A stretch of DNA of 64,000 nt from an uncultured bacterium (GTDB taxonomy: Bacteria; Hydrothermota; Tepidihabitantia; B3-TA06; CAYQJV01), in contig CAYQJV010000003.1 of NCBI GenBank assembly GCA_964417925.1, positions 13,941 to 77,940 on the forward strand. Direction: 5' to 3'. Numbering within the stretch: position 1 is the first letter of the stretch; each line of letters starts with the position of its first letter. Under the pieces are notes generated by a model. That model was not told where the DNA came from and ran no database searches. It worked only from the letters and a program-made list of their open reading frames with translations. Both the position numbers and the translations under genes were made by a program. Positions 20,040 to 63,886 of the stretch are shown here, one piece after another.

Positions 20040-20900
20040 ATGGAAACTTTAATCCTTGATGGAAGAAAGGCTTCTGAGGAAATAAGGATGGAACTTGTGA
20101 GGGAGGTGAAGGAGTTAAATAAAAAGGGAAAAACTCCGAAACTCGTGTTTATTACAGTAGGGGATAATCCAGCATCAAAAAGTTATGTAAGGGCAAAAGA
20201 AAGGGCTTGTGTAAAAGTTGGTATTGTTACAGAAAATAAAGAGTTTAAAGAAGATGTTGAGACAAAAGAGGTGGTAGACAAAATTAAAGAGTTGAATGAA
20301 AATGATGAGGTGGATGGGATAGTGGTACAGCTTCCTCTTCCTAAGAAGATCGATAAGGAACAGGTTTTAAATGCAATAAGTATAAATAAAGATGTTGATT
20401 GCTTAAATCCTCTAAATCTTGGCTATCTTATGATTAAAGAACCCATTTTTTATCCTAATACCCCAATGGCAATAATTGAACTTTTAAAATTTTATGGAAT
20501 AAAAATTGAAGGAAGTTACGTGGTGATCCTTGGTAGAGGTAAGACTGTAGGAGTTCCGCTTGTAAATATCTTACTAAAGAAAGGTCCTTATGGAAATGCT
20601 ACTGTTACGGTATGCCATACAAAAACCAGGAATTTAAAGGATATTACATCAAGTGCAGATATTCTTGTTTCTGCAATTGGTGTACCTGGTTTTGTAAAAG
20701 GTGATCTTATAAAGGAAAATGCAGTAATCGTAGATGTAGGGATAAATGTGATTGAAGGGAAGATTGTTGGAGATGTAGATGCTAACTCTGTAATAGGTAA
20801 AGCAAAAGCTCTTTCTCCAGTTCCGGGTGGAGTAGGGCCAATGACGGTGACGATGTTGTTAAAAAATGTGATAAAGGCTGCAAAGAGGAATGTTGCTTGA
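20040..20900 (+). CDS. folD: Bifunctional methylene-THF dehydrogenase / methenyl-THF cyclohydrolase
   Basis: ILDGRKASEEIR...LVFITVGDNPASKSYVRAK...GRGKTVGVP...PVPGGVGPMTV. Confidence 0.9.
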   Translation: METLILDGRKASEEIRMELVREVKELNKKGKTPKLVFITVGDNPASKSYVRAKERACVKVGIVTENKEFKEDVETKEVVDKIKELNENDEVDGIVVQLPLPKKIDKEQVLNAISINKDVDCLNPLNLGYLMIKEPIFYPNTPMAIIELLKFYGIKIEGSYVVILGRGKTVGVPLVNILLKKGPYGNATVTVCHTKTRNLKDITSSADILVSAIGVPGFVKGDLIKENAVIVDVGINVIEGKIVGDVDANSVIGKAKALSPVPGGVGPMTVTMLLKNVIKAAKRNVA

Positions 20901-21750
20901 AGAAATACTCAAAGAAAGGAAGAAAACAATAGATAAAAAAATAGATGAGTTTTTAAAAGAAAACGGAGGTAAACTTGTTGAGGCAATGAAGTATAGCGTA
21001 TTTGCTGGAGGAAAAAGATTAAGGCCATTGCTTGCTTGGTTATCCTATGAGGCATGCGGTGGAGGAAGCGAGGAGGATATTCTTCCCTTTGCCTGTGCAG
21101 TTGAACTCGCTCATACTGCGACCCTTATTCATGATGACCTTCCTAGTATGGATGATGATGATTTAAGAAGAGGAAAACCTGCAAGTCATAAAGTATTTGG
21201 TGAGGCAATGGCGATTCTTGCAGGAGATGCATTGATAATAGCTTCATTTGAACTTGCTCTTCTTTCAAAGGCACCGAAGGATAGGGTAGTGCGGTCAGCA
21301 AGATTGCTTTCCCAGGCTATAGGATTTAAGGGGGTTACAAAAGGACAGGAACTTGATCTTTTTACAGAGGATCTTAATCCAAGAGTTTTAAGAAAGGTGC
21401 ATTTGTATAAAACTGCTGTATTTATATCTGCATGTATGGAGGGGGGAGCTCTACTTGCAGGAGCAGAGGAGAAAAAAATTCTAATGATAAGAAAAGCAGG
21501 AACATTTATGGGTATGGCATTTCAAATACAGGATGATATACTTGATGCAGTTGGAAGTGAAGAAAAATTGGGAAAAAGAGTTAAAAAAGACCAAGGAAAG
21601 CCTACATATACTGCAATTTATGGAGTGGAAGGGGCAAAAAGGATAAGAGATGGTTACTGTAGAAGAGCTAAAAAACTGTTTGATGTCTTGGGTAGGGAAT
21701 GGGAAATATTTAAAGATATAACCGACTTTGTAGCAAGGAGGGAGTATTGA
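20890..21750 (+). CDS. Polyprenyl synthetase (FPP/GGPP synthase, IspA family)
   Basis: First Asp-rich motif LIHDDLPSMDDDDLRRGKP and second Asp-rich motif FQIQDDILD. Chain-length specificity (C15 vs C20) cannot be read from the sequence by eye. Confidence 0.85.
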   Translation: MLLEEILKERKKTIDKKIDEFLKENGGKLVEAMKYSVFAGGKRLRPLLAWLSYEACGGGSEEDILPFACAVELAHTATLIHDDLPSMDDDDLRRGKPASHKVFGEAMAILAGDALIIASFELALLSKAPKDRVVRSARLLSQAIGFKGVTKGQELDLFTEDLNPRVLRKVHLYKTAVFISACMEGGALLAGAEEKKILMIRKAGTFMGMAFQIQDDILDAVGSEEKLGKRVKKDQGKPTYTAIYGVEGAKRIRDGYCRRAKKLFDVLGREWEIFKDITDFVARREY

Positions 21751-23615
21751 GTATTCTTGAGAGGATAAATTCTCCTGCAGATTTAAAAAAATTGAAACTT
21801 GAAGAGCTTGAAAAACTTACCGGAGAGATAAGGAAAAGAATAATAGAGGTAACCGCAAAAAATGGAGGGCATGTAGCACCGAATCTTGGGGTGGTTGAAC
21901 TTACAATTGCATTACACTATGTGTTTAATGCGCCGCAAGACAAAATAATATGGGATGTAGGGCATCAGTGTTATACCCATAAACTTTTGACTGGCCGAAG
22001 GAAGGCTTTTGAAACTATAAGAAGAAAGGGAGGAATTTCAGGATTTCCCAAAAGAGAGGAGAGTGAATACGATGTTTTTGGAACAGGACATGCAGGAACA
22101 TCATTATCTGCTGCTTATGGAGTTGCAGTGGCACGGGATTTACTTAATGAGAACTACCGGGTAATTGCAGTAATAGGAGATGGTTCTTTGATTTCAGGAA
22201 TGGCACTTGAAGCATTAAACCATATAGGAGCTTCAGGAAAGGATATAATGATAATTCTTAATGACAATGGAATGTCCATTGCAAAAAACCCTGGAGCTAT
22301 TGCTCTTTACCTAAACAGAATAATAACCATGCCTTTTTATAAGAGATTAAGAGCTAAGGTATGGAATTTACTTGGTAAACTTCCTGCAGAAAAAAGGGAT
22401 AGAGCAAGGAGAGTCGCAAGAAAGATAGAGAAGAGAATGAAAGGATTACTTATTCCTGGGGTATGGTTTGAGGAGCTTGGTTTTCATTATTTTGGTCCTC
22501 TTGATGGACATGATTTAAAAGGACTTATATCCTTCTTTAAGAGAATTGAGGACATTCATGGTCCTTTATTGATACATGTGTTGACAAAGAAGGGATATGG
22601 ATTTGAAATTGCCCAGGAGAATCCTGAACTCTTCCATGGAGTTGGTCCTTTTGATTTGAAGTCTTTTGAAATAATAAAGAAGGGTAGTAAAAAGAGTTAT
22701 TCTTCTTTCTTTGGAGAGACTCTTGTTGAATTTGCAGAAAAAGATAAAAGGATAGTTACAATTACTGCTGGAATGTGTCTTGGCACAGGGCTTACGAAGT
22801 TTAGAGAAAGATTTCCCCAAAGGTTCTTTGATATGGGGATAACTGAGGAACACTGTGCTACCTTTGCAGCAGGACTTACCTTGAGGGGTTTGAAGCCGGT
22901 TTTTGCTATTTATTCTACATTTTTACAGAGAGCTTTTGACCAGGTGATACATGATATTGCATTGCAGAAACTTCCGGTTATTTTCTGTATAGATAGAGCA
23001 GGCATTGTAGGAGAGGATGGTCCAACTCATCATGGAACATTTGATATTTCATACTTAAGACTCATACCCAACATAGTGGTTTCTGCTCCAAAAGATGAAG
23101 ATGAATTAAAAGACCTTTTATATACTGCTTTAAACTATGATAAAGGACCTTTTGCATTGAGATATCCAAGAAGTTCTGTAGTCGGAGTTAAAGTAAAAAA
23201 GAGCCCCCAAAAAATTGAGATAGGCAAATGGGAAGTTCTGAAAAAAGGAAGAGATGTGTGTATTCTTGCTGTTGGATCAATGGTATATCCATCTCTTGAA
23301 GCAGCAGAGATTTTGAAAAGATGTGGCATCTCTGCTCAGGTGGTGAATGCAAGATTTATAAAGCCTCTGGATGAGGGAATGCTTGAGGTGATGGCGAGAA
23401 GATTTAAAAAATTGGTAACGGTTGAAGAAAATACCTTAGAAGGTGGTTTTGGAAGCGCAGTATTGGAATTTCTTGAGAAAAAGAAAATAAAGAAGGAGGT
23501 CTTAAGGATAGGTATACCCGATAAATTTATAGAGCATGGTTCAAGGAGTGAGTTACTTTCAGAAATTGGTTTAACAAAGGAGGGTATATCGGAAAAGATT
23601 AGAATGTTTTTATGA
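21747..23615 (+). CDS. dxs: 1-deoxy-D-xylulose-5-phosphate synthase
   Basis: TPP-binding region GHAGTSLSAA...IGDGSLISGMALEALNH, and the transketolase-like middle and C-terminal domains. 622 aa. Confidence 0.9.
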   Translation: MSILERINSPADLKKLKLEELEKLTGEIRKRIIEVTAKNGGHVAPNLGVVELTIALHYVFNAPQDKIIWDVGHQCYTHKLLTGRRKAFETIRRKGGISGFPKREESEYDVFGTGHAGTSLSAAYGVAVARDLLNENYRVIAVIGDGSLISGMALEALNHIGASGKDIMIILNDNGMSIAKNPGAIALYLNRIITMPFYKRLRAKVWNLLGKLPAEKRDRARRVARKIEKRMKGLLIPGVWFEELGFHYFGPLDGHDLKGLISFFKRIEDIHGPLLIHVLTKKGYGFEIAQENPELFHGVGPFDLKSFEIIKKGSKKSYSSFFGETLVEFAEKDKRIVTITAGMCLGTGLTKFRERFPQRFFDMGITEEHCATFAAGLTLRGLKPVFAIYSTFLQRAFDQVIHDIALQKLPVIFCIDRAGIVGEDGPTHHGTFDISYLRLIPNIVVSAPKDEDELKDLLYTALNYDKGPFALRYPRSSVVGVKVKKSPQKIEIGKWEVLKKGRDVCILAVGSMVYPSLEAAEILKRCGISAQVVNARFIKPLDEGMLEVMARRFKKLVTVEENTLEGGFGSAVLEFLEKKKIKKEVLRIGIPDKFIEHGSRSELLSEIGLTKEGISEKIRMFL

Positions 23616-41636: not shown

Positions 41637-42676
41637 TTGCCCTCCTTATTTTTAAATTGAGAAAGCAACTTAAAGGCCTTTTGGGCATATAAGTTAAGTG
41701 GATCTATTTCAATACATTTTTTGAGGTATTCAAGAGCTTTCTTGGGATCCTTTTTAAAAAACTCTACTCCTTTTTTATACAGGAGTTCACATAATACAGA
41801 GTTTATAAGTCCATCGCTTTTTTTTAAGTTATGTGCCTTTTGCAGATCTGCAATTGCTTCGTCAATTTTGCCAAGTTTTTTATACAGAATTCCTCTATTG
41901 AGATAAAATTTGTAGTTATTGGGAGAAAGTTGTATAGCTTTTGTGTAATCGCTCAGGGCATCCTTGTATTTTTCAATTTTTTCATATGCCTTACCACGGT
42001 TGCTGTAAAATAAAGGATTTTCGGGATCAAATTTTATTGCATTGGTATAATCATCTATTGCTCTATCGTATTTCTTAATCTCAGAAAATAGCCTTCCTCT
42101 GTTGTTATAAGCAAGAGCATAAGTGGAATCCAAAGATAAGGCTTTGGTGTAATAAAATAAGGCTTTTTGCTTTTCTTGATTATATTCGTAACCCATTGCA
42201 AGGTTATGGGTTATTAAAGGATTAAGGGAGTCTATTTCATAAGCTTTCTTGAAGTAAATTAATGCACTATCATATTGTTCGGTCTTAAAATACACAATTC
42301 CAAGGTTATTGTAATACTCGGCATTTTCAGGAGAAAGTTCTATTGCGGTTTTAAAATCCAGTATTGCTGCAGCATAATTTTTAAGATTTAGATAGGCAGT
42401 TCCTCGGTTATAGTAATATATTGCCTTTTCAGGGGAAATAGCTATTGCTTTATTAAAATAATCTACCGCAGTGTTATAATCCCTTAAAGAGAAATAACAT
42501 AGTCCTAACCCATTATATGCTTCTGCGTTGTAAGGATTTTCTTTTAATACTTTATTAAATTCTTTTATCGCCTTTTCATAATTACCTGTAGTATAGTAGT
42601 TTTTTGCTTTTGAAAGGTAATACGATGCACATCCTAATAAAAGCAAGAAAATGGTGAAAAATTTTCTGTTATTCAT
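41633..42676 (-). CDS. Tetratricopeptide-repeat lipoprotein
   Basis: Signal peptide with lipobox LLGC. It contains 8 or more canonical 34-aa TPR units (AEAYNGLGLCYF..., AIYYYNRGTAY..., etc.). Confidence 0.7.
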   Translation of the reverse strand: MNNRKFFTIFLLLLGCASYYLSKAKNYYTTGNYEKAIKEFNKVLKENPYNAEAYNGLGLCYFSLRDYNTAVDYFNKAIAISPEKAIYYYNRGTAYLNLKNYAAAILDFKTAIELSPENAEYYNNLGIVYFKTEQYDSALIYFKKAYEIDSLNPLITHNLAMGYEYNQEKQKALFYYTKALSLDSTYALAYNNRGRLFSEIKKYDRAIDDYTNAIKFDPENPLFYSNRGKAYEKIEKYKDALSDYTKAIQLSPNNYKFYLNRGILYKKLGKIDEAIADLQKAHNLKKSDGLINSVLCELLYKKGVEFFKKDPKKALEYLKKCIEIDPLNLYAQKAFKLLSQFKNKEGK

Positions 42677-42683
42677 TATATTT

Positions 42684-42712
42684 AATTATCCTCTTAAAAA
42701 GTAAACTGTCAA
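42684..42712 (-). promoter_or_regulatory. Sigma70-like promoter (TTGACA-17-ATAATT on minus strand), -10 ends 7 nt before TPR start codon
   Basis: Plus strand: TGTCAA at 42707-42712 and AATTAT at 42684-42689. Start codon CAT at 42674-42676. Confidence 0.35.
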
Positions 42713-42844
42713 GTTTATTGATTTGATTCTGTTGGATGTATAATTAAAAATCATGGAGCTTTATGGAGGTAGCCCATTTTTAAAAAAGTATTAAAAGATT
42801 ATTTTCTTTTAGGTTCCATTTTAACATTTATTTTATTATCTTTT

Positions 42845-43292
42845 TTGTTCCCCTGTAAAATAAGAAAATATCCTGAATTTGTTGATTGGACAACAATGGT
42901 TATTTTAACTTCGCTCATTATAATTACTACAGGTTTAAAGGAAAGTGGATTCTTCCAGCATATTTCCGAGAATTTGGTTTTTGGATTTAAAAACGAAAGA
43001 AAGCTCGCTTTGGTGATGATAATAATTTCTGTGTTTTTTTCTATGTTTTTGACAAACGATATTACACTTTTTATTTTGATTCCCATTACCCTTGAAATGC
43101 AAAAAAGACTCAAAAATGATTTAAGAAAGTTAATAATTTTTGAAAACTATCGCAGTAAATGTTGGCTCTCTTTTAACTCCTGGAGGGAATCCACAAAATG
43201 TATTTATATGGCACAGATGGGATGTTCCTTTTGTTAAATTCATATGGAGAATGCTTCCAGCAGAATTGGTTTGTTTTGGGTACTCTTTATAA
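42845..43292 (+). pseudogene. Remnant of an ArsB/NhaD-superfamily (YbiR-like) anion permease; frameshifted and 3'-truncated
   Basis: The frame from 42845 gives a permease N-terminal TM hairpin (...FLTNDITLFILIPITLEM) and then diverges. The 43137-43292 frame gives IAVNVGSLLTPGGNPQNVFIW, the family hallmark. Only ~150 of the expected >400 aa are present, and 43293-43502 is non-coding. Confidence 0.55.
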
Positions 43293-43467
43293 TTGCTTTA
43301 TTTGAATTCAAAGATAATGCTTTATATTTACATGTTAAATTTTATAATCACAAAGTTAACAAACTATACCTCTTAAATTTTTTCTGCATTCAGTAAAAGA
43401 AAATCTACTTGAATTTTATATAACAGGCATTGTGCTTTCACAACTTATAAGTAATATCTCTTTTAAA

Positions 43468-43495
43468 TTGACTTTTTGAAATATTCTAAGATAAT
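43468..43495 (+). promoter_or_regulatory. Sigma70-like promoter TTGACT-16-GATAAT, -10 ends 7 nt before ATG 43503 (leaderless-type)
   Basis: TTGACT at 43468-43473, GATAAT at 43490-43495. Confidence 0.35.
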
Positions 43496-43502
43496 TTAAA
43501 TA

Positions 43503-43979
43503 ATGAAAAAAATAGTTTTTTCTGGATTTGTGGCGTTTATTTTCTGTTGTGGATATTCCACTCGGGCTTTACTGCCTCCTTATTTAAAATCCATCTATAT
43601 TTCTCAGCCTGTAAATAATACTACAAAACCTATGTTGGAGGAAGTACTCAAACGAAATCTTGAGATGAGTTTTATTAAAGATGGAAATCTAAAGGTAGTG
43701 GGATCTATTGATGAAGCTTCTCTCATATGTGAGACCACAATAAAAAATTATTCAAAGTCTCCTGTGGAGTATACTGTAGATCAATTTGTACGACACTGGA
43801 GAATTACCATTACAGTACATGTGAAATGTACTGACCAAATAAAAAACAGAATTTTTTGGGAAGGAGATGTTTCTTTTTGGGAAGATATTCAACGAATAGA
43901 GGATGAGGAAAAAGCTATAGATACTCTTTTTAAAAGGATTTCACAGGAGATTGTAGTAAAAACAGTTACCAATTGGTAG
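43503..43979 (+). CDS. Small lipoprotein (LptE-like size and architecture?)
   Basis: Signal peptide with ...FIFCCGYS lipobox-like Cys, followed by a ~130 aa beta-rich domain. The LptE assignment is speculative. Confidence 0.4.
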   Translation: MKKIVFSGFVAFIFCCGYSTRALLPPYLKSIYISQPVNNTTKPMLEEVLKRNLEMSFIKDGNLKVVGSIDEASLICETTIKNYSKSPVEYTVDQFVRHWRITITVHVKCTDQIKNRIFWEGDVSFWEDIQRIEDEEKAIDTLFKRISQEIVVKTVTNW

Positions 43980-43980
43980 A

Positions 43981-45282
43981 TTGATAGTTTCGGTTGAGAA
44001 GATTGTATACGGAGGCTATGCTCTTGCAAGACACAAGGGGAAAGTAATTTTCATAAAGAACGTACTTCCAGAGGAAAAGGTAAAAATAAAAATAGTCAAA
44101 GAAAAAAAGGACCATGCTTTTGCCGAGGTGGTGGATATAATAGAATCCTCCGTACATAGACAAGATCCAGAATGTCAACATTTTGGATTGTGTGGTGGAT
44201 GTGATTTTCAGTATGTATCGTATGAATATGAGATGTTTTTAAAAAAAGAGATGCTTGAGGAACTTTTAAAAAGGGAAAAGATAGATGTTGAGATTAAGGA
44301 AGTTGTGGTTTCAAAATCTCATAAAGGATATAGAAATAAAAGTGAACTTCCTGTAAAGGGAGGTAAAAGAGTAAGAATAGGTTTTTTTGAAAGTAAAAGT
44401 CATAGAGTTGTAAATATTAAAGAGTGTACAGTGCATCCAAGATTTTTTAACGAGATTATAGAGGTGTTGAGAGGGAAAATAGAAAGGACAAAGGTATCCA
44501 TATACGATGAGAATACAGGAAGAGGAGATTTAAGGTACATCATACTGCGAACAAACCCTGCAAAAGATGTACTTATTGGATTTGTTTCTAAGTCCGGTAG
44601 TCTTTCCCATGAGGCCTGGAAAGGAGTAGAAAAGAGATTTAAAAATATCAAAGGAATTCTGGTAAATTACAATCCATTTTCTGGTTCAAAAATAACCGGC
44701 GATAGGATAAAAAATGTTTATGGTAGAGATTTCTTGAAATACCGGATCAATGGGAAGACATTTATAGTAAGTTTTCTTTCGTTCTTTCAGACAAATTCCT
44801 ATCAATTGGAGAATATGGTGGGGCTAATAAAAGATCTTCTATCCCCTGAAAAAAACGATAGAATAGGTGATTTATATTCAGGGGTTGGATTGTTTGGAAT
44901 ATCCTTGGCAGAGGATGTGAAGCATGTGGTTTTGATAGAGCAAGCATCAAGCTCAGTAGAGGATGCAAGAAAAAATATTGAAATTAATCAGTTGGTAAAT
45001 ATAGAGGTAGTAAAAGGAGATGCATCCTGGATAAGAGAGTTTGAAGGTATAAATAAACTGATAGTGGACCCCCCAAGGAAAGGGATGTCTGATGAGGTGA
45101 TAAAAGCAATACTGCATTTAAGCCCTGAGAGGATAGCTTATGTATCGTGTAATCCAGCCACTTTTGCAAGAGATATTAAAAAACTGGAAGAAAAATACAG
45201 GCTTCAATATGTTGTTCTTATAGATATGTTTCCCAGAACATACCATATGGAGGTTGTTGGTTTACTTTTAAAAAATGATTAA
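43981..45282 (+). CDS. rlmD: 23S rRNA (uracil-C5)-methyltransferase RlmD/RumA family (TRAM + 4Fe-4S + MTase)
   Basis: TRAM segment IVYGGYALARHKGKVIFIKNVLPEEKVKIKI. Cys cluster CQHFGLCGGCDFQ. SAM motif DLYSGVGLFG. Catalytic DPPRKG and C-terminal Cys (VSCNP). Confidence 0.8.
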   Translation: MIVSVEKIVYGGYALARHKGKVIFIKNVLPEEKVKIKIVKEKKDHAFAEVVDIIESSVHRQDPECQHFGLCGGCDFQYVSYEYEMFLKKEMLEELLKREKIDVEIKEVVVSKSHKGYRNKSELPVKGGKRVRIGFFESKSHRVVNIKECTVHPRFFNEIIEVLRGKIERTKVSIYDENTGRGDLRYIILRTNPAKDVLIGFVSKSGSLSHEAWKGVEKRFKNIKGILVNYNPFSGSKITGDRIKNVYGRDFLKYRINGKTFIVSFLSFFQTNSYQLENMVGLIKDLLSPEKNDRIGDLYSGVGLFGISLAEDVKHVVLIEQASSSVEDARKNIEINQLVNIEVVKGDASWIREFEGINKLIVDPPRKGMSDEVIKAILHLSPERIAYVSCNPATFARDIKKLEEKYRLQYVVLIDMFPRTYHMEVVGLLLKND

Positions 45283-49069: not shown

Positions 49070-50803
49070 TCAACAAAAACAGGATTTTTGAATTAAAAAC
49101 CATATATAAGATATTAAAAAAGAAAGTACGAGGTTCCCATCAATTAAAGTTTCAAATAAAACATCTCTATAGAATATAGAGAATTTTTCTTTTATTGTAA
49201 ATACAAGAATGTAAAGAAAAAGATTAAAGGAAAGGAAGATAGAAAGGGAGGGAGTAAAATTTTTAAAATAAGCTAAAGTCATTATCCCTAAGGATAGAGA
49301 TAAAACTACTACTCCAAGAATTTTTGTTTTAGTTTCTCCGATAAGTACAGGGATACTTTCAATTCCGGTTACTAAATCTCCTTGTAAGTCTCTTAAACTG
49401 TATATAAGAGATCTGCAAAAAGCCATTGTAAATGCAAATAAAAATACTACTAATGTATTTGGGGAGATACTTTTTCCAGTAGAAAACATGTTTAAAAAAA
49501 CAAGCATCAATGCCCATGCAGTAGCAAGAAATATGTCTTTGGAGCCTGGAATATCTGCGAAACTTTTGTATTTAAAAGGAAGGAATTTGAATCTATACAA
49601 TATTCCAAGAAGGGAAAGCAAAAGCACTGCTCCAAAGGTCTTCCAAGAAAGAAACCATGAGACTGCAAGGGAAGATGAGACACCAAGAATACCAAGGATG
49701 ATGAGCAATTTTCTGTGTTTTCTATAAAAATCACTTCTTGCTGGGTAGTTTATATCAAGTGTCTTTGGATCTGTGAGATGATTTAAAAGATGCATTGCAA
49801 ATATGTAGGAAGCTGCTATCCATTCAAAAGCAAGAGATGGCTCTATTCCTAAGAGTCTTGAGCATGCATAGCATAGAGAGGCAGCACTAAAAGCTACGTA
49901 TAAGTGACTTCTTATAAAAAATCTCCATAACCATAGGATAAATTTTTTAATGCTTTTTCCCTGAACTTGGAGCTCTTCAAGTTTATAAACTACTCTTTGT
50001 ATAAGCCAATCCGGAGTTGATGCTCCAGCAGTTACTCCAATTTTTTTAAATTTTTTTATATCTGTTGGGAGTTCTTTTTCTCTTTCAATGTGGAAGGCGA
50101 TTTTCCCTTCTTCTCTTATTATTTCTGCAAGTCTTCTTGTATTTGCACTATTTTTCCCTCCTACCACAATTACTGCATCACATATTTTTGCAAGTTTTCT
50201 TGCTTCCTCCTGTCTTTCATCGGTTTCTTCACAGATTGTGTCATAAAGTTCAACATTTTTTCTACTTTTTACAAGTTTCTTTATTTTTTCAAATCTTCTA
50301 CGATTTTGCGTAGTTTGAACTACTATACATAATTTTTTTTCTTTTTTCTTTTTTATAATTTTTTCAAATTCTTTTTCATTCTCCGCAATCTCTGCTCTAT
50401 TTTTAGCATATCCCATCAATCCCTTTACTTCTGAATGAGTCTTATCCCCTATTATTATTACTTCTTTTCCTTCTTTGATACATTTTTTTACAATCATCTG
50501 AACTCTATACACTTTTGGACAGGTAGCATCAATTATTTTTACCTTTTTTCTTTGAAGTTTTTTTCTTTCTTCAGGAGAAATGCCATGAGCTCTTATTATT
50601 ACTCTTGATAAAGGAGGGATTTCTTCTATATTTTTTATTGTTTTTACGCCCCTCTGTTTTAAGAATTCTACCATTTGGGGATTATGTATGAGGTCTCCAT
50701 AAGAGACTATTTTTTCGTTCTTTATTAATTCTTTAAAAACAATCTGAATCGCTCTTCTTACACCGAAACAAAACCCTTTCTTTTTTGCTATTATTATCTG
50801 CAA
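49070..50803 (-). CDS. ispH: Fusion protein: 4-hydroxy-3-methylbut-2-enyl diphosphate reductase (IspH/LytB) + UbiA-superfamily membrane prenyltransferase
   Basis: The N-terminal ~285 aa is a complete IspH with the three cluster Cys (GFCFGV, DATCPKV, DTICEETDERQ), VVQTTQ and GVTAGASTP. The C-terminal ~290 aa is polytopic, with the first Asp-rich motif variant NHLTDPKTLD and a canonical second motif YSLRDLQGDLVTGIESIPVLIG. It is a single uninterrupted ORF. Confidence 0.7.
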   Translation of the reverse strand: MQIIIAKKKGFCFGVRRAIQIVFKELIKNEKIVSYGDLIHNPQMVEFLKQRGVKTIKNIEEIPPLSRVIIRAHGISPEERKKLQRKKVKIIDATCPKVYRVQMIVKKCIKEGKEVIIIGDKTHSEVKGLMGYAKNRAEIAENEKEFEKIIKKKKEKKLCIVVQTTQNRRRFEKIKKLVKSRKNVELYDTICEETDERQEEARKLAKICDAVIVVGGKNSANTRRLAEIIREEGKIAFHIEREKELPTDIKKFKKIGVTAGASTPDWLIQRVVYKLEELQVQGKSIKKFILWLWRFFIRSHLYVAFSAASLCYACSRLLGIEPSLAFEWIAASYIFAMHLLNHLTDPKTLDINYPARSDFYRKHRKLLIILGILGVSSSLAVSWFLSWKTFGAVLLLSLLGILYRFKFLPFKYKSFADIPGSKDIFLATAWALMLVFLNMFSTGKSISPNTLVVFLFAFTMAFCRSLIYSLRDLQGDLVTGIESIPVLIGETKTKILGVVVLSLSLGIMTLAYFKNFTPSLSIFLSFNLFLYILVFTIKEKFSIFYRDVLFETLIDGNLVLSFLISYIWFLIQKSCFC

Positions 50804-50807
50804 ATGT

Positions 50808-52238
50808 TTAGTTTTCCCTGGATTTTTTTCTGTCTTGCTCTATGGATAGAAGTTCCTCTTCGGTTACATAAGTGGGATAATTTCCAGAAAAACAAGCGGT
50901 GCAGAATGTTATATCTTTATCACCCCTAACTCCTTCCACCATTTTCTCAAAGTCTTGATAGATTAATGCGTCTGCCCCTATCTTTTCCTTTATTTCATTT
51001 TCAGAGTACTGCTTTGCTATGAATTCTTCTCTTGTTGCCATATCTATGCCGTATACGCATGGATATCTCAAAGGTGCAGAATAGACCCCGTAGTATACTT
51101 CCTTAGCTCCTGCATTTCTTACCATCTTGATTATTTCCTTGGATGTATTTCCTCTTACAATAGAATCATCTATAAGAAGGACTCTTTTATTTTTTATCTC
51201 TGTTATTACAGGATTTAATTTTTGTTTTACCGAAACCCTTCTTATTTTTTGATTCGGCATTATGAAGGTTCTTGCAATATAACGATTTCTTATCAATCCT
51301 TCAGAGAGTTCTACTCCAAGTTCCTTTGCAAGAGCTATAGCCGCAGGTCTTGCTGTGTCTGGTACAGCAATTACAACATCTGGTTTTATCTTCATTTTTT
51401 TACATTTTTCTGCAAGCAGTTTGCCGAGTCTCTTTCTCGCTTCAAGTACTCCTATTCCCTCAAGTATAGAATCCGGCCTTGCAAAATATACCCATTCAAA
51501 TATACAGTGTGTTGGAGGAGTAGATACCAATCTTTCTGAAATTACTTCTAAATCTTCATTTACCCATACAACTTCACCTGGTTTTACATCTCTTACTGTT
51601 TCAAACCCCAAAAAATCAAAAACTACGGTTTCTGAGGCAAAGGCAATGGACGAGTTTTTTTTACCCATTACAAGAGGTCTTATCCCCAATGGGTCCCTCC
51701 ACGCTACGAGTCCTTTTCCTGCTATGAGTGAAATCACAGAATATGCTCCTTTTACCCTTTTTATTACCTCCATTACTCCTTTTTTGATAGTGTCAAAACT
51801 GAACTCTCTATCTTCCATTCCTTCGGCAAATACATTTAGAATCACTTCTACGTCGCTTGTTGAATTGATATATCTTTGGTTTTTTTCAAAAAGTTCTTTC
51901 TTTAATGAATAAAAGTTAATCACATTTCCGTTGTGTACCATTGCAATTCCAAATGGGTGATTTATGTAGAAAGGTTGAGCATCTTCCGGAGATCCTCTTC
52001 CTATGGTAGGATATCTAACCTGTCCAATACCTATATTCCCCTTTAATCGTGAAAGATTTTTTTCGTTAAACACATTAAGAACTAAACCTATTCCCTTTTT
52101 CAAATGGAACATTTCATCATAAGTTACTATTCCTGCTGCATCTTGACCTCTGTGTTGTAGCATTAAAAGTCCTTGAAAGAGGTCGTATCCCACATTCTCG
52201 GTTTTTTCTTTATTAATTATTCCTAAAATTCCACACAT
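50808..52238 (-). CDS. purF: Amidophosphoribosyltransferase
   Basis: MCGILGI N-terminal nucleophile Cys. Gln-amidotransferase type II domain. PRTase motif VLLIDDSIVRGNTS. C-terminal Cys cluster. Confidence 0.9.
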   Translation of the reverse strand: MCGILGIINKEKTENVGYDLFQGLLMLQHRGQDAAGIVTYDEMFHLKKGIGLVLNVFNEKNLSRLKGNIGIGQVRYPTIGRGSPEDAQPFYINHPFGIAMVHNGNVINFYSLKKELFEKNQRYINSTSDVEVILNVFAEGMEDREFSFDTIKKGVMEVIKRVKGAYSVISLIAGKGLVAWRDPLGIRPLVMGKKNSSIAFASETVVFDFLGFETVRDVKPGEVVWVNEDLEVISERLVSTPPTHCIFEWVYFARPDSILEGIGVLEARKRLGKLLAEKCKKMKIKPDVVIAVPDTARPAAIALAKELGVELSEGLIRNRYIARTFIMPNQKIRRVSVKQKLNPVITEIKNKRVLLIDDSIVRGNTSKEIIKMVRNAGAKEVYYGVYSAPLRYPCVYGIDMATREEFIAKQYSENEIKEKIGADALIYQDFEKMVEGVRGDKDITFCTACFSGNYPTYVTEEELLSIEQDRKKSREN

Positions 52239-59441: not shown

Positions 59442-59921
59442 TTATCTTTTCTTTCCGTAAACAATGGTGATCATTGTACTTTTCTTTTCTCTGGTTATAG
59501 TAACCATGAAGCCTTCTTTTTCTTTCTTTAAGGTAAGCATTATTCCCTTATCTTTTTCTCCTGCTCCTTCAACTTCCATTATTTTCTTCCATCCTTTATT
59601 GGTTAGATTTTCGTAATACCTTTTCACCGCATAAAAACTGGCATTTGTTTCCATTATCACCGTATGTCCTTTACCCATTATTGAAAACTTACCTTTTACC
59701 TTTGCGCCTGGATATATGAGTTCTCTTGGGAAATCAGCAGGTAGATTCACGCTTTCACCAATGTCAATATCTGCCTTTTCTCCAGTTTCTTTTTCTATCT
59801 GTTTTTCAATTGTTTTTTCAACTATTCTTTTACCAATTGGTGCACATGGTGCACAAGGTGCGCATTTTAAAAAAACCCCCAGTGTTGCAAGAATTATTAT
59901 AAAAGTTAATATTTTTTTCAT
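59442..59921 (-). CDS. Small secreted/lipoprotein with CAPCAPCAP tripeptide repeat after the signal sequence
   Basis: MKKILTFIIILATLGVFLKCAPCAPCAPIGK... The repeat is encoded by 3 tandem 9-bp units at 59839-59865. Confidence 0.4.
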   Translation of the reverse strand: MKKILTFIIILATLGVFLKCAPCAPCAPIGKRIVEKTIEKQIEKETGEKADIDIGESVNLPADFPRELIYPGAKVKGKFSIMGKGHTVIMETNASFYAVKRYYENLTNKGWKKIMEVEGAGEKDKGIMLTLKKEKEGFMVTITREKKSTMITIVYGKKR

Positions 59922-60475
59922 AACACCTCCTTGTATTGTTTTGGTCCTTCAACAAACAAATTACCTCCGTAACAGTCAATTGCTACAATGGCAGGGAGGT
60001 CCTCAACAACAAGTTTTCTTATTGCCTCCGGACCAAGGTCTTCATAAGCTACTATCTCTACTTTCTTAACTGCTTTTGCTACCAGAGCTGCTGCTCCTCC
60101 TACCACCACAAAATATACTGCTTTATGTTTAACCATGGATTCTATCACTTCCTTTCCTCTTGGACCCTTGCCTATCATTCCTTTAAGCCCTGCAGAAAGC
60201 AATGCAGGGGTATATGGATCCATCCTTATGCTTGTGGTGGGACCAGCAGGTCCTATAGGATATCCTGGTTTTGCAGGGGCAGGGCCAACATAATATATTA
60301 CTTTACCTCTTATATCAAAAGGAAGAGATTCTCCCTTTTTTAAAATTTCCACAAGCCTTTTATGAGCTGCATCTCTTGCTGTATATACTTCACCAGAAAT
60401 TAAAACTCGTTCACCTGCTTTTAGAGAAAGCACAGTATCTTCTGTAAGTGGGGTTGTTATTTTTTTTCTTTCCAT
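59918..60475 (-). CDS. Fe-S hydro-lyase beta subunit (class I fumarate hydratase / L(+)-tartrate dehydratase beta type)
   Basis: 185 aa with the ...GEVYTARDAAHKRL...GKVIYYVGPAP...VVVGGAAALVA... pattern of FumB/TtdB-type beta subunits. No alpha-subunit gene adjacent. Confidence 0.7.
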   Translation of the reverse strand: MERKKITTPLTEDTVLSLKAGERVLISGEVYTARDAAHKRLVEILKKGESLPFDIRGKVIYYVGPAPAKPGYPIGPAGPTTSIRMDPYTPALLSAGLKGMIGKGPRGKEVIESMVKHKAVYFVVVGGAAALVAKAVKKVEIVAYEDLGPEAIRKLVVEDLPAIVAIDCYGGNLFVEGPKQYKEVL

Positions 60476-60530: not shown

Positions 60531-61253
60531 TTAAAACCTTTCAAAAATTCTGTCAATATCTTGAATTATCTTTTCATTTTTTTCAAATGCATTTCCTATT
60601 ACTAAGAAATCTGTCCCTGCTTTTATCAGTTTTCCGATTTCCATTATGTCTTTTATTCCTCCACCTACCATTACTTTTACATTAAGTTTTTTCTTTATCC
60701 TTTCTATCATTCTCTCTGGGACCGGTTTTTTAGCACCACTTCCTGCATCAAGATAAACAAGCTTTAAACCTATATAGTATCCTGCAAGAACATGGGCAAA
60801 AAGGATATCTGGTTTATCTCTGGGAATAGGTCGTGTATTACTCATAAACTCTACACTGGTCTGTTTTCCAGATTCAATTAGAAGATAACCTGTAGGAATT
60901 GCTTCAATGCCATAATGATAAATAAGAGGAGCTGCTTTTACCTGTTCTCCTATTAAAAATTCAGGGTTTCTTCCACTTAAAAGAATCATGAATAAAATTG
61001 CATCTGCATATCTGGATACTTGGTGGGACCCTCCTGGGAAGATTATTACAGGTTTATCTGTATTTTCCTTTATCGTTTTTACAAATTCGTCAAATTCAGG
61101 ATTAAGCAGGAGACTTGTGCCTACCAGAATACCAAGTGCTTTGGATTTAGTTATTGTTTTTACCATGTTCTTCAATCTTTTTCTTTCTATTCTATCAGGA
61201 TCAAGCAATACAAAGAAACCAGGTGCCTTTTTTTCTATCTTTTCCCAAACCAT
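60531..61253 (-). CDS. GGGPS/PcrB-family prenyl-glyceryl-phosphate synthase ((hepta/geranylgeranyl)glyceryl phosphate synthase)
   Basis: FVLLDPDR, ILVGTS, YLDAGSG and VMVGGGIKD...FLVIGNAFE align with PcrB/GGGPS hallmarks (FKLDPNK, IIGGS, YLEYSG, YGGGIKD...IVVGNA). Confidence 0.75.
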   Translation of the reverse strand: MVWEKIEKKAPGFFVLLDPDRIERKRLKNMVKTITKSKALGILVGTSLLLNPEFDEFVKTIKENTDKPVIIFPGGSHQVSRYADAILFMILLSGRNPEFLIGEQVKAAPLIYHYGIEAIPTGYLLIESGKQTSVEFMSNTRPIPRDKPDILFAHVLAGYYIGLKLVYLDAGSGAKKPVPERMIERIKKKLNVKVMVGGGIKDIMEIGKLIKAGTDFLVIGNAFEKNEKIIQDIDRIFERF

Positions 61254-62521
61254 GGTGGTTTACTTTTTTTTATCATTTTTGACATTTTATTTATCATGTT
61301 AAGCTCCTGTAAGAGTACATTCACATCATGGGGGGTAGTTCCACTTCCCCTTGCTATCCTTGCTCTTCTTGAGCCGTCTATTATTCCTGGGTTTCTTCTT
61401 TCCTCTGGAGTCATTGAAAGTATGATAGCCTCTTTTTTCTTCAATTCATCTTCATCTATTTCATGTTGTTTTAATCCAGGGATCATCCCTGCGATTTTTG
61501 AAAATCCTCCCATTTTTTTAAATGTTCTTATCTGTACTAAAAGGTCTTCAAAATCAATTTTTCCTTCAAGAAATTTTTTTTGTGTTTTTTTCCTTAATTC
61601 TTCAGTAGTTATTTTCTCTACTTCTTCTGCTATGCTTAATACGTCTGGTTCACCCATTACTCTCACTGCAATCCTTGTAGGATCGAAATGCTCAAGCATA
61701 TCTATTCTTTCGCCTGTCCCTATAAAAAATACGGGTTTTTCAGTAACACTTTTAAAAGAAAGTATCACTCCTCCTCTTGGATCTCCATCCATTTTTGTGA
61801 CTACCCCTCCATCTATTCCAATCCTTTTGCTAAATTCTTCTGCCTGTCTTAGTGCATCTTGACCTGTCAAACCATCTATCACAAGTAGTGTATATTCTGG
61901 TTTTGTCTTATCTTTTATCAATTTGAGTTCTTCCATCATCTCCTCATCTATGTGCAATCTTCCTGCAGAGTCTATTATTACTACTCCATTGCCCTTTGTT
62001 TTAGCCTGTTTTATTGCTTCAAGGCATGTATTTAAATTATTTTCTTTCTGTGCAAAAAAATCTGCTCCTGCTCTTCTTGCTAAGAGTTGTAACTGTTTTG
62101 CAGCAGCAGGCCTTTTTGTATCTGCAGGCACAAGTAAAGGTTTCCTATTCCTCCATAGAAAGGCAAGTTTTGCAGCTGTAGTTGTTTTTCCTGTGCCTTG
62201 AAGTCCAACGAGAAGTATCACAGAAGGCATGTTTTTGAATTCAATCTTTACTGGTTTTTCACCGAGAAACTTTACAAGTTCTTCATAAACTATCTTCATT
62301 ACCTGTTTGCCAGGAGAAAGGGCAGATGTTACTTCTGTGTTTTCTATTTTCTTCTTTATTTTTTCTGTAAGATTTTTCGCAACTTGATAATGAACATCTG
62401 CTTCCAGTAATGTTCTTCTTAGATCCCGTATAAAACTTTCTATTTCCTTATTAGATAGTTTCCCAAACCCTGTTATTTTTCTTTTAAGTTTTTGAAAAGA
62501 ATCTTGAATTAAGTCAAACAT
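61235..62521 (-). CDS. ffh: Signal recognition particle protein Ffh (SRP54)
   Basis: NG domain with GLQGTGKTTTAAKLA, DTAGR-like (IIDSAGRLHIDEEMM), and the C-terminal Met-rich M domain. Confidence 0.85.
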   Translation of the reverse strand: MFDLIQDSFQKLKRKITGFGKLSNKEIESFIRDLRRTLLEADVHYQVAKNLTEKIKKKIENTEVTSALSPGKQVMKIVYEELVKFLGEKPVKIEFKNMPSVILLVGLQGTGKTTTAAKLAFLWRNRKPLLVPADTKRPAAAKQLQLLARRAGADFFAQKENNLNTCLEAIKQAKTKGNGVVIIDSAGRLHIDEEMMEELKLIKDKTKPEYTLLVIDGLTGQDALRQAEEFSKRIGIDGGVVTKMDGDPRGGVILSFKSVTEKPVFFIGTGERIDMLEHFDPTRIAVRVMGEPDVLSIAEEVEKITTEELRKKTQKKFLEGKIDFEDLLVQIRTFKKMGGFSKIAGMIPGLKQHEIDEDELKKKEAIILSMTPEERRNPGIIDGSRRARIARGSGTTPHDVNVLLQELNMINKMSKMIKKSKPPWFGKR

Positions 62522-63149
62522 TTTTTATTTTTTCAACCACTTCTTTATAGTTATTGCTTTTGAATATTGCAGATCCTACTACCACCACATCTACTCCTAC
62601 ATCTTTTAGGTATTTTGCATTTTTAGGATTTATCCCTCCATCTGCAGAGATTACAAAATTTCTTTTACTGTGTTTTTTTGAAAATTCTTCTATTTTTTTT
62701 AATACAGAAGGAATAAGAGATTGTCCTCCAAATCCAGGATAAACGGTCATGAAAAGAACTTCCTCTACATAGGGGAGGAAGTGTTCTACCATTTCTACTG
62801 GAGTATCTGGATTTAATGCTATTCCAGCTGGGATACCTTTACCTTGTAGAGATTTTGCAAGATCTTCTGAATAATGAGTTTCTACATGGTAAATCACAGC
62901 ATCTGCGCCATTTTTTATAAATTCCTCTGCATATTTTGAAGGGTTTTCTATCATTAAATGCACTCTTACAGGAAGTGATGTGACCTTCCTTACTGCAGAG
63001 GTAATTGGTATACCAAAACTTATATTTGGGACGAAGTGGCCATCCATAACATCCAGGTGGAATCCATCAACTCCTGCTTCTTCTGCTTTTTTAATTTCAG
63101 TAGATAAGATTGAAAAATCACAGTTAAGGATAGATGCAAATATTTTCAT
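62514..63149 (-). CDS. rpe: Ribulose-phosphate 3-epimerase
   Basis: MKIFASILNCDFSIL...GVDGFHLDVMDGHFVPNISFG. Confidence 0.9.
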   Translation of the reverse strand: MKIFASILNCDFSILSTEIKKAEEAGVDGFHLDVMDGHFVPNISFGIPITSAVRKVTSLPVRVHLMIENPSKYAEEFIKNGADAVIYHVETHYSEDLAKSLQGKGIPAGIALNPDTPVEMVEHFLPYVEEVLFMTVYPGFGGQSLIPSVLKKIEEFSKKHSKRNFVISADGGINPKNAKYLKDVGVDVVVVGSAIFKSNNYKEVVEKIKNV

Positions 63150-63886
63150 GGTTCTTTTCCTACTATTAGATGTACTGTATCGCCTTTCTTAATTTTAGCT
63201 CCTGCCTTAGGAGTTTGAATTATCACAATTCCTCCTTGTCCTTCTATTTCAATCTCTTTTATACTACCTATTACCAATGAATCTTTTTCAAGAATTTTTT
63301 TGGCTTTCTCTATATCCAGTCCTTCTAAGAGAGGCATTATGATGGTTGCAGTGGTATCAGATACTGATACTGAAAGTATAAGAGGGGTATTGGGAGGTAC
63401 GTATATTTCAGGCTTTGGTTTCATCGCAACAACTCTTCCCTCTTCTATGGTATCTATTTGCACACTGTCAATTCTTGCTATTCTGAATCCTCTTTTTTCT
63501 GCTATCTTTTGTGCTTGTTCAATTCTTAATCCGAGAAGATAGGGAACTCTTATTCTTTCCTTTCCTTTACTTATTGTTAAAAAGATGTTTCTTCCCTTTT
63601 TAACTACTGTTCCAGGTTTAGGTTTCTGGGCAATTACGGTTCCCTTAGGATTTTTAGGATCCGGAAGTTCCTCATACACGATAGGTTTTAAACTTAACTC
63701 TTTTAACCTTTCTTCTGCTTTTCTTATCTGCATTCCAATAACAGATGGTACTTCAACAGTTTCTCCTTGTCTTGTTACTATGGGCATTATGATGTAGTTT
63801 CCTATTATAATACCAAGAAAAAGAAATACAATTATTCCAGTAATACTTGATAAAATATATAGGGTTATTCGTGTTCCTTTGTTCAT
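63146..63886 (-). CDS. Membrane-anchored PASTA-domain protein (three PASTA repeats, no kinase/PBP domain in this ORF)
   Basis: N-terminal TM, then three ~65 aa repeats of the PASTA pattern (VPSVIGMQIRKAEERL...; VPYLLGLRIEQAQKIA...; MPLLEGLDIEKAKKIL...). Confidence 0.7.
   Translation of the reverse strand: MNKGTRITLYILSSITGIIVFLFLGIIIGNYIIMPIVTRQGETVEVPSVIGMQIRKAEERLKELSLKPIVYEELPDPKNPKGTVIAQKPKPGTVVKKGRNIFLTISKGKERIRVPYLLGLRIEQAQKIAEKRGFRIARIDSVQIDTIEEGRVVAMKPKPEIYVPPNTPLILSVSVSDTTATIIMPLLEGLDIEKAKKILEKDSLVIGSIKEIEIEGQGGIVIIQTPKAGAKIKKGDTVHLIVGKEP

Follow-up and report, generated by a model that had tools for sequence, protein, structure and literature searches.

The window, a 64,000-nucleotide (64-kb) stretch of bacterial DNA analysed here at its full length, carries a gene that probably encodes a functional group IIb geranylgeranylglyceryl phosphate synthase (GGGPS), which would transfer a C20 chain to glycerol-1-phosphate (G1P) in a WOR-3-type diderm bacterium and would be coupled to ffh (Table 1). 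Judged from its sequence, the gene is an intact, genuine bacterial counterpart of the archaeal enzyme responsible for the first ether bond of membrane lipids. Bacterial group II GGGPS bears on the 'lipid divide', that is, on whether some bacteria have archaeal-type or mixed membranes, and what is new here is the addition of a deep WOR-3-related lineage to the carriers of GGGPS. The overall picture is unchanged, because GGGPS has been documented across FCB-type phyla and shown to be active for Bacteroidetes and Cloacimonetes, for which PMC7852524 and PMC7888582 summarise the synthesis of GGGP by group II enzymes in vitro. The useful new lead is a negative one, namely that the UbiA domain near this GGGPS is not to be counted as a DGGGPS.

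Table 1. Features of the window that bear on the GGGPS gene
Feature	Positions	Strand	Basis or remark
Group II (bacterial IIb) GGGPS, 240 aa	60531..61253	-	ATG start; Pfam, NCBIfam and 4JEJ match
ffh (SRP54), upstream operon partner	61235..62521	-	Pfam SRP54, SRP_SPB, SRP54_N
ffh/GGGPS overlap, 19 nt	61235..61253	-	Sequence read
rpe	62514-63149	-	Pfam; conserved upstream part of gene array
PASTA-domain protein	63146-63886	-	Pfam; conserved upstream part of gene array
Class I fumarase/tartrate dehydratase beta-type subunit	59918..60475	-	Pfam Fumerase_C, 207 bits
Short-chain prenyl diphosphate synthase, predicted GGPP synthase	20890..21750	+	Pfam polyprenyl_synt, 181.5 bits
Dxs, first MEP pathway enzyme	21747..23615	+	Pfam DXP_synthase_N, 387.6 bits
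IspH domain of fusion (last MEP step)	49964..50803	-	LYTB, 313 bits, residues 3-275
UbiA-superfamily membrane domain of fusion, PT_UbiA_5-type	49070..49921	-	Pfam UbiA, 50.7 bits
LpxL-type lipid A acyltransferase	9274-10110		Diderm marker
LptE	43503-43979		Diderm marker
SprA-like type IX secretion protein	23612-29053		Diderm marker

The initial annotation had described a protein of 240 aa with the hallmarks of this family, and both points were borne out: the reading frame is present and starts with ATG, and the quoted motifs VLLDPDR (residues 15-21), YLDAGSG (167-173), GGGIKD (197-202) and VIGNA (218-222) were all found. The choice of this ATG is supported by alignment A3, since the homologues begin at the same residue. 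Pfam PcrB (PF01884) matched residues 9-233 with 131.8 bits (E 3.4e-38; cut-off 23.9 bits), covering profile positions 7-222 of 226. NCBIfam NF003198 gave 282.2 bits (cut-off 247), the TIGR01769 'GGGP' equivalog 191.7 (cut-off 161.55) and TIGR01768 159 (cut-off 113.25). In the sequence search against PDB chains, 4JEJ scored 195 bits and 4MM1 165 bits. The AF2 model (pLDDT 88.8) shows a modified (beta-alpha)8 barrel that superposes better on group II than on group I/PcrB structures, and Foldseek aligned it with 4JEJ at a TM of 0.90 and 44% identity, and with 4MM1 at a TM of 0.88 and 35-38% identity. The gene is under purifying selection, with a dN/dS of 0.087 against a relative whose GGGPS is 71% identical; this comparison alone gave a usable value, dS being saturated against the 55% relative.

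The residues of GGGPS were mapped from sequence alignments with 4JEJ and 4MM1 to the positions named in PMC9385802. 4JEJ is the Flavobacterium johnsoniae enzyme (Fj), a bacterial group IIb GGGPS according to Peterhoff et al. 2014 as cited in PMC9385802, and is the best match of the window enzyme in both sequence and structure; 4MM1 is the archaeal group IIa enzyme of Methanothermobacter thermautotrophicus (Mt). A small limiter residue on helix alpha3', I90 in Fj and V86 in Mt, sets the C20 length (PMC9385802). The aligned residue in the window enzyme is Val79, the same amino acid as in Mt, and V, I or L occupies this position in 94 of 97 relatives. A small limiter shared with 4JEJ thus implies C20 specificity for the window enzyme as well.

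The phosphate-binding residues are also intact, and the catalytic ones appear to be so. Group II enzymes conserve a Tyr/Tyr/Glu set for G1P positioning and catalysis (PMC9385802), of which the window enzyme keeps Tyr123 and Tyr167. The acidic catalytic position is Asp169, where Mt and Fj have Glu, and this exchange is probably tolerated, since Asp is seen in 36 of the 97 bacterial relatives. The standard phosphate loops, GSG behind beta6, GGG behind beta7 and G-x behind beta8, correspond to G171-S172-G173, G197-G199 and G220, none of which varies in A3, and all 43 of the 43 invariant columns of that alignment are kept. Position 221, for which a conserved Thr has been reported in group II, is Thr in Mt and Fj but Asn in the window enzyme (Asn221) and in 73 of 97 relatives. 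Compared with 4JEJ, the window enzyme has the TIM-barrel fold, a small limiter, both Tyr residues and the phosphate loops in common, but carries Asp169 where 4JEJ has the catalytic Glu, and Asn221 where it has Thr. These two exchanges, together with the lack of a Shine-Dalgarno sequence, were counted against a functional GGGPS.

The enzyme is probably a hexamer, as predicted from Phe136 at the 'aromatic anchor' position. This would resemble the Chitinophaga and archaeal enzymes, whereas FjGGGPS, a dimer, has Arg at the anchor. The anchor is aromatic in the Mt enzyme too (W141). The latter acts in a complete archaeal lipid pathway, and the window enzyme branches in a bacterial clade.

The GGGPS gene had been said to overlap the ffh stop, and indeed its ATG lies 19 nt inside the 3' end of ffh. 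Reading of the sequence found no Shine-Dalgarno before the GGGPS start codon, and translational coupling to ffh is therefore likely. GGGPS would be co-transcribed with ffh and probably translationally coupled to it, and so would be expressed constitutively. The overlapping start locks GGGPS into the ffh operon, which argues for constitutive, housekeeping-level expression over an accessory role. The order PASTA-PASTA-rpe-ffh-GGGPS, with the overlap, recurs in the relatives whose GGGPS are 71% and 55% identical; the upstream rpe/PASTA order is shared by loci L001, L084 and L086, the junction overlaps by 22 nt in L084 and 11 nt in L086, and the overlap is kept at 100%, 71% and 55% GGGPS identity. 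The ffh-GGGPS synteny was not found in 80 GTDB loci and is specific to the sub-lineage of the window.

On the other side of GGGPS, a fumarase-type gene lies 55 nt downstream and has its own strong Shine-Dalgarno, AAGGAGGTG, before its ATG. This neighbour is not conserved, as L084 and L086 carry other genes at this place. A scan of the minus strand between the genes found no terminator-like site, which is compatible with an operon without proving it, and the promoter scan of the region gave matches at chance level. Genes are packed tightly throughout the window, so adjacency to ffh alone would be a weak sign of a functional link.

The polyprenyl synthase named in the initial annotation is present and GGPP-synthase-like. 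It scored 274 against the FPPsyn model (cut-off 275) and 232 against the curated CrtE model (cut-off 460), and its best solved relatives are the cyanobacterial CrtE structures 7my6 and 7mxz. By the established chain-length rule, type II GGPP synthases lack aromatic side chains at positions -4/-5 relative to the first Asp-rich motif, and this motif contains a two-residue insertion. The chain-length region of the window synthase, AHTATLIHDDLPSMDDDD, agrees with this type II rule, having Ala at -5, Thr at -4 and no aromatic residue, and its signature matches that of the synthase in the Cloacimonadota GGPPS-DGGGPS-GGGPS operon. Its predicted product is GGPP. The donor would thus arise from the MEP pathway, of which Dxs and IspH are encoded in the window, through this synthase.

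Most likely, this TIM-barrel prenyltransferase attaches geranylgeranyl (C20) to the C3 hydroxyl of its predicted acceptor, G1P, forming one ether bond. The likeliest fate of the product would be a minor pool of isoprenoid glycerol-ether lipid, and a second alkylation, if any, would fall to a canonical stand-alone DGGGPS encoded beyond the window, as in other FCB genomes. No canonical DGGGPS was found in the 64-kb window, nor a G1P dehydrogenase (EgsA/AraM), CarS or geranylgeranyl reductase (ORFs of at least 150 aa and the gaps between them); acceptor supply and the downstream pathway are therefore unsupported by the window. The system of Ca. Cloacimonetes (Villanueva et al. 2020, PMC7852524) is similar in this respect, for a G1P dehydrogenase was not found there either. 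Each host is an FCB-type bacterium in which a group II GGGPS accompanies the MEP pathway, and their GGPPS-type prenyl synthases have the same chain-length signature. In Cloacimonadota (L033), however, the genes form a GGPPS-DGGGPS-GGGPS operon, whereas in the window GGGPS sits in the ffh operon, the prenyl synthase lies 39 kb away beside dxs, and there is no canonical DGGGPS.

As no second-step enzyme is linked to GGGPS in the window or in the loci examined from WOR-3 and Zixibacteria, the enzyme may instead make a mono-ether only, a non-bulk lipid that would be dephosphorylated and modified like the Bacillus PcrB product and whose role would be minor or specialised (lipid anchor, signal or envelope tuning, for instance). 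Such a role is possible, but we consider it rather unlikely. The ordinary bacterial envelope genes of the window (lipid A acyltransferase, LptE) would fit it, and the role of bacterial group II GGGPS products has been stated as unknown (PMC7888582). However, GGGPS and DGGGPS orthologues were found in all 12 FCB phyla surveyed (Coleman 2019, PMC6431249), and the Cloacimonetes pair yields an archaetidylglycerol-type lipid in E. coli (PMC7852524). Moreover, the window is part of a genome, and a DGGGPS may sit elsewhere.

The initial annotation had counted GGGPS, the polyprenyl synthase and an IspH-UbiA fusion as the enzyme set for ether lipids. GGGPS and the GGPP-type synthase stood, but the UbiA domain is no recognisable DGGGPS, its scores being far below the cut-offs. 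The fusion itself was confirmed (49070-50803, minus strand). Its IspH domain scored 289.5 against TIGR00216 (cut-off 187.85) with the cluster residues Cys12, Cys95 and Cys191 conserved, and the Pfam UbiA match spans residues 310-534. A complete (di)prenyl-glyceryl-phosphate pathway, in which the fused UbiA would act as DGGGPS and attach the second ether-linked chain, appears improbable. In a more specific form, which we regard as very doubtful, the UbiA domain (CDD PT_UbiA_5) would in this WOR-3-related lineage be the missing second-ether enzyme and alkylate GGGP with prenyl diphosphate channelled from the IspH domain. If this were true, the orphan IspH-UbiA family would gain a function and, with an SRP-coupled GGGPS, archaeol-like diethers would be constitutive core constituents of the membrane in a diderm bacterium.

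Some profile and fold matches spoke for this proposal. The UbiA partner does not group with the quinone clades of MenA/UbiA; the models that it matches best, though weakly, are those of archaeal prenyltransferases and DGGGPS, and such models were also the closest across 51 UbiA domains of the fusion family (PRK13591 in 46/51, PRK12882 in 36/51, MenA in 14/51). Nevertheless, all DGGGPS models stayed far under their cut-offs, at 22-35 bits against 212-313 (PRK12882, 29.5 vs 296; PRK12872.1-1, 24 vs 278), and the best NCBIfam prenyltransferase model reached 34.9 bits against 269. A phmmer search of PDB sequences with the domain returned no UbiA-family chain, such chains being found by the fold search alone. 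In Foldseek of the AF2 model (pLDDT 86), the M. jannaschii DGGGPS structures 7bpu and 6m31 came first by E-value (6e-5), but AfUbiA and ApUbiA had higher TM scores, and DGGGPS could not be told from the remaining UbiA structures by TM. Used as the query, the Cloacimonadota DGGGPS found UbiA domains of the fusion type (28-31% identity, about 170 aa aligned); with the window domain it aligned at 27% identity over only 90 aa.

The active-site motifs and the gene neighbourhoods of the family spoke against it. The Cloacimonadota DGGGPS carries NDFFDLTID and EDIEGD; in the window domain the second motif is kept (RDLQGD), but the first Asp-rich site is degenerate (NHLTDPKTLD). The loss of NDxxDxxxD is family-wide, the site being replaced by MHxLN(R/H)xTD...N(D/E)P, in which the Asn and the central Asp/Glu alone are retained. 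In its favour, the fusion is the only UbiA-family gene of the window and lies only 9.7 kb from GGGPS, but about ten unrelated genes separate the two, and true DGGGPS genes adjoin GGGPS in Cloacimonadota and Poribacteria. None of 80 fusion loci (832 kb) had a GGGPS within 10 kb. The family, found also in Nitrospinota, Brocadiia, Edwardsbacteria and Fibrobacterota, ranges more widely than GGGPS is known to. On the available sequence comparisons, the UbiA domain is not a demonstrable DGGGPS.

An IspH-UbiA 'Rosetta stone' fusion has been described from sulfate reducers (Rao et al. 2015, PMC4746011). Like the window protein, it joins an IspH at the N-terminus to a UbiA-like domain of about nine transmembrane helices at the C-terminus, and the window protein aligned over its whole length with at least 150 cluster representatives of such fusions, which are about 580 aa long. 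The earlier fusion was reported from sulfate reducers only, whereas the present one occurs in a WOR-3-like FCB-type bacterium with GGGPS; PMC4746011 describes two DxxxD motifs, whereas the first site is degenerate in the family-wide alignment. The family also occurs in lineages not known for GGGPS. The UbiA domain had at one point seemed very rare (10 word-index matches), which was overturned by an exhaustive HMM search and a metagenome scan that revealed a large family. The HMM profile includes IspH columns (509 positions), so that its 12,220 matches at E<=1e-3 are inflated by ordinary IspH proteins, and the family analysis used the best 150 near-full-length matches of the 12,220.

With group IIb GGGPS as the preferred reading, it is extremely unlikely that the enzyme is a heptaprenylglyceryl phosphate synthase of the Bacillus type (PcrB), even though the Pfam family is named PcrB and the generic NCBI product name spans both activities. 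Bacillus subtilis PcrB (group Ib) has the superfamily, fold and G1P acceptor chemistry in common with the window enzyme, but belongs to a different group and is 15-16% identical to it. The NF003197 score was 16.1 bits against a cut-off of 260, placing the enzyme with the archaeal/FCB group II type rather than with PcrB. The phmmer search of the PDB found no PcrB or group I chain at E<=1e-3, HisA and HisF chains outscoring every PcrB chain, and the PcrB identity is effectively refuted. Foldseek agreed, with TM scores of 0.73-0.80 and identities of 14-18% to PcrB and AfGGGPS against 44% to 4JEJ, and the window has no long-chain (C35) synthase.

The host was claimed to be a diderm, which the LpxL-type acyltransferase, LptE and the SprA-like protein support. 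Every named nearest homologue of ffh comes from candidate division WOR-3, and by these matches the host is a diderm within, or adjoining, that division. A neighbour-joining tree placed GGGPS with its ffh-linked relatives, then WOR-3, inside the bacterial FCB group IIb clade; the gene would have been inherited vertically within the FCB/WOR-3 clade. A recent transfer from archaea, or an assembly or binning artefact, has next to no probability although group II GGGPS is mostly archaeal, and is effectively refuted because the ffh overlap is conserved: GGGPS overlaps ffh, bacterial diderm genes fill the contig, the identical junction was assembled independently in two further runs (L001, L002) and recurs in the 71% and 55% relatives, composition is even across the region, and the tree places the gene within the WOR-3/FCB clade. 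One close match labelled Methanothrix had hinted at an archaeal origin; this was rejected, as the sequence nests among Zixibacteria in the tree and is therefore probably mis-binned.

The description of such genes as rare in bacteria proved wrong. A GTDB scan counted at least 595 species loci encoding GGGPS relatives over FCB-type phyla, the best match among those listed being 55% identical, and GGGPS is already known as common in FCB-type bacteria. The closest relative of the lineage comes from hydrothermal sediment.

In its initial annotation, the window was read as holding a rare and complete ether-lipid enzyme set, consisting of a geranylgeranylglyceryl phosphate synthase (GGGPS), a polyprenyl synthase and an IspH-UbiA fusion. 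All three genes were present as claimed, and a group II GGGPS, a likely GGPP supply and a conserved placement in a housekeeping operon were upheld, while completeness and rarity were not.

Coordinates of features in the window and at compared loci
Feature	Position	Strand	Remark
GGGPS ORF	60531-61253	minus	ATG start, 240 aa
ffh	61235-62521	minus	GGGPS start codon inside its 3' end
Class I fumarase/tartrate dehydratase beta-type subunit	59918-60475	minus	directly downstream of GGGPS
Polyprenyl synthase	20890-21750		folD-IDS-dxs cluster
IspH-UbiA fusion	49070-50803	minus	C-terminal UbiA, Pfam 50.7 bits
purF	50808-52238; locus L085 176-1615		beside fusion
purD and purE	locus L088 1646-4254		beside fusion
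Poribacteria DGGGPS homologue	locus L018 7514-8092; locus L035 6675-7505		
SprA-like, type IX secretion translocon-like protein	23612-29053	plus	SprA_N match, 1813 aa
257-aa ORF (citrate synthase C-terminal part only) and overlapping HD-domain ORF	14226-15534	minus	profile positions 162-355 of 357
Fragmentary membrane-protein ORFs only	42677-43502		lowest-GC stretch

Every motif quoted for the GGGPS was found in its product, and Pfam PcrB covered residues 9-233 with 131.8 bits. Four lines of evidence (NCBIfam models, PcrB/group I models, PDB sequences and AlphaFold superposition) placed the enzyme in group II. NF003198 scored 282 (cut-off 247) and the 'GGGP' equivalog TIGR01769 scored 191.7 (cut-off 161.55); the Bacillus heptaprenyl-PcrB model gave 16 against a cut-off of 260, and the Archaeoglobus group I model 30 against 320. 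The best PDB sequence matches were the GGGPS of Flavobacterium johnsoniae (4JEJ, 195 bits) and Methanothermobacter thermautotrophicus (4MM1, 165 bits), with no PcrB or group I chain at E 1e-3 and with HisA and HisF chains outscoring them. The AlphaFold model (pLDDT 88.8) superposed on 4JEJ with a TM of 0.90 and 44% identity, on archaeal group II enzymes with 32-38% identity, and on PcrB and AfGGGPS with only 14-18%. Model scores, sequence search and structure identities together effectively ruled out a Bacillus-type PcrB, so the tight clustering with Bacillus PcrB that would have told most against the initial annotation was not seen.

Functional residues were mapped using PDB sequence alignments and the positions named in a review (PMC9385802). 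Val79 occupies the position of the chain-length limiter (V86 in M. thermautotrophicus, I90 in F. johnsoniae), Tyr123 and Tyr167 are present, and the phosphate loops are intact (GSG 171-173, GGG 197-199, G220). The catalytic Glu is replaced by Asp169 and a Thr by Asn221, and the same residues occur in 36 and 73 of the 97 bacterial relatives, respectively. The dN/dS against the 71% relative was 0.087. Judged from this conservation, the enzyme looks active and C20-specific. Its 'aromatic anchor' is Phe136, where the M. thermautotrophicus enzyme has W141 and the dimeric F. johnsoniae enzyme an Arg, and on this basis a hexamer is predicted (PMC7888582).

The polyprenyl synthase scored 274 with the FPP-synthase model, just short of the cut-off of 275. 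Its chain-length region AHTATLIHDDLPSMDDDD carries Ala at -5 and Thr at -4, whereas position -5 is Tyr in E. coli IspA; the leading prenyl synthase of a Cloacimonadota GGPPS-DGGGPS-GGGPS operon shows the same Ala and Ser/Thr pattern. The closest solved relatives were cyanobacterial CrtE GGPP synthases, and a C20 product is our best guess.

The ffh stop falls 19 nt past the GGGPS start codon. Since GGGPS homologues share the start residue (alignment A3), both the start and the previously claimed overlap are real. PASTA-PASTA-rpe-ffh-GGGPS, again with an overlapping start, was also the gene order in two assemblies obtained independently from this organism, and it recurred in two relatives, the 71% one of Guaymas/hydrothermal metagenomes (22-nt overlap) and a 55% one (11-nt overlap); it was not found in 80 GTDB loci, nor in a WOR-3 locus. 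No Shine-Dalgarno sequence precedes the GGGPS start codon, the following gene has one (AAGGAGGTG), and no terminator-like site was found between ffh and GGGPS on the coding strand. GGGPS is likely co-transcribed and translationally coupled with ffh, in a minus-strand array that is tightly packed throughout from 63886 to ~53000. With this caveat, the likely coupling supports the suggested core rather than accessory role. No alpha-subunit gene for the downstream fumarase/tartrate dehydratase was found anywhere in the 64-kb window.

Genes for an LpxL-type acyltransferase, for LptE and for a SprA-like type IX secretion protein in the window mark the host as a diderm with FCB-type features, and the large SprA_N protein itself fits an FCB-type affiliation. 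Named near neighbours of Ffh all belonged to candidate division WOR-3, at an identity of only ~55% save for one 72% relative, indicating by sequence comparison a deep lineage. In a neighbour-joining tree, the GGGPS grouped with homologues P0002 and P0003, next with P0004, P0005, P0006 and P0014, and then with a WOR-3 clade, all within the bacterial group IIb radiation. At E<=1e-3, 7748 relatives were found among 8000 candidates scored, and a GTDB scan gave at least 595 confirmed species loci; Zixibacteria, WOR-3, Ignavibacteria, Cloacimonadota, Calditrichota, Marinimicrobia, Poribacteria and Bacteroidota, the last including cultured Chitinophaga and Sediminibacterium, were among the matches listed. 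This distribution matches published surveys, in which GGGPS and DGGGPS, the second-ether-bond enzyme, occurred in all 12 FCB phyla surveyed (PMC6431249), and Cloacimonetes enzymes were functional in E. coli (PMC7852524). In this region of the tree, GGGPS thus cannot be called rare. Two GGGPS sequences carry implausible host labels: a 'Methanothrix sp.' MAG sequence (P0057) nests among Zixibacteria, and one from a 'Synechococcus sp. UW140' MAG (L023) is near-identical to L026, which is from Bacteroidota. The contigs of both were probably mis-binned.

The initial annotation loses support at the UbiA domain of the fusion. When 51 family members were compared with curated models, archaeal prenyltransferases and DGGGPS came closest, and not MenA/UbiA, and Foldseek placed MjDGGGPS first by E-value; the domain thus does not belong to a quinone pathway. 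A recognisable DGGGPS was also rejected. The best curated models reached only 22-35 bits, where the cut-offs lie at 212-313; both here and family-wide the first Asp-rich motif is degenerate, with MHxLN(R/H)(F/L)TD...N(D/E)P in its place across the family; and the match of a canonical Cloacimonadota DGGGPS was confined to the surroundings of the second motif (27% identity across 90 aa), with no other match in the window. No GGGPS lay within 10 kb of the UbiA domain at any of 80 metagenomic loci (72 visibly fused to IspH). It is very unlikely that the fused domain supplies DGGGPS-like activity. The fusion is probably the housekeeping IspH, because the 64-kb window holds no second one. G1P dehydrogenase, CarS, geranylgeranyl reductase and a stand-alone UbiA-family gene were likewise absent from the window's ORFs >=150 aa and the gaps between; as only 64 kb were covered and most FCB genomes lack G1PDH (PMC6431249), this is neither for nor against ether-lipid synthesis.

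In Villanueva et al. 2020 (PMC7852524), bacterial co-localisation of GGGPS and DGGGPS was reported for Cloacimonetes alone. Two Poribacteria genomes carry a canonical DGGGPS homologue 2.5-3.3 kb upstream of GGGPS.

The fusion has been published as a 'Rosetta stone' protein of Desulfobacterales, Desulfobacca and Thermodesulfatator, with 47 sequences from sulfate reducers reported in 2015 (PMC4746011); the presumed absence of GGGPS from these fusion-bearing organisms is taken from the literature. Our material (the window gene, P0132-P0279 and L089-L168) shows a family of much greater size and taxonomic range than this, with at least 150 cluster representatives of ~580 aa at 50% identity in an exhaustive search, at least 452 metagenome loci, and named members in Nitrospinota, Edwardsbacteria, Brocadiia and Fibrobacterota. 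Purine-biosynthesis genes adjoin the fusion in three divergent lineages (window, L085, L088). At 12 of the 80 fusion loci (L092-L108, L117), a closely related group of metagenomic contigs, a polyprenyl synthase homologue ~32% identical to the window's lies ~5 kb upstream on the opposite strand.

Elsewhere, the lowest GC of the window (0.297, 42001-44000) coincides with the membrane-protein fragments, possibly a decayed transporter gene. The 257-aa ORF, overlapped by an HD-domain ORF by 44 nt, may represent a citrate synthase that is split, truncated or unusual.
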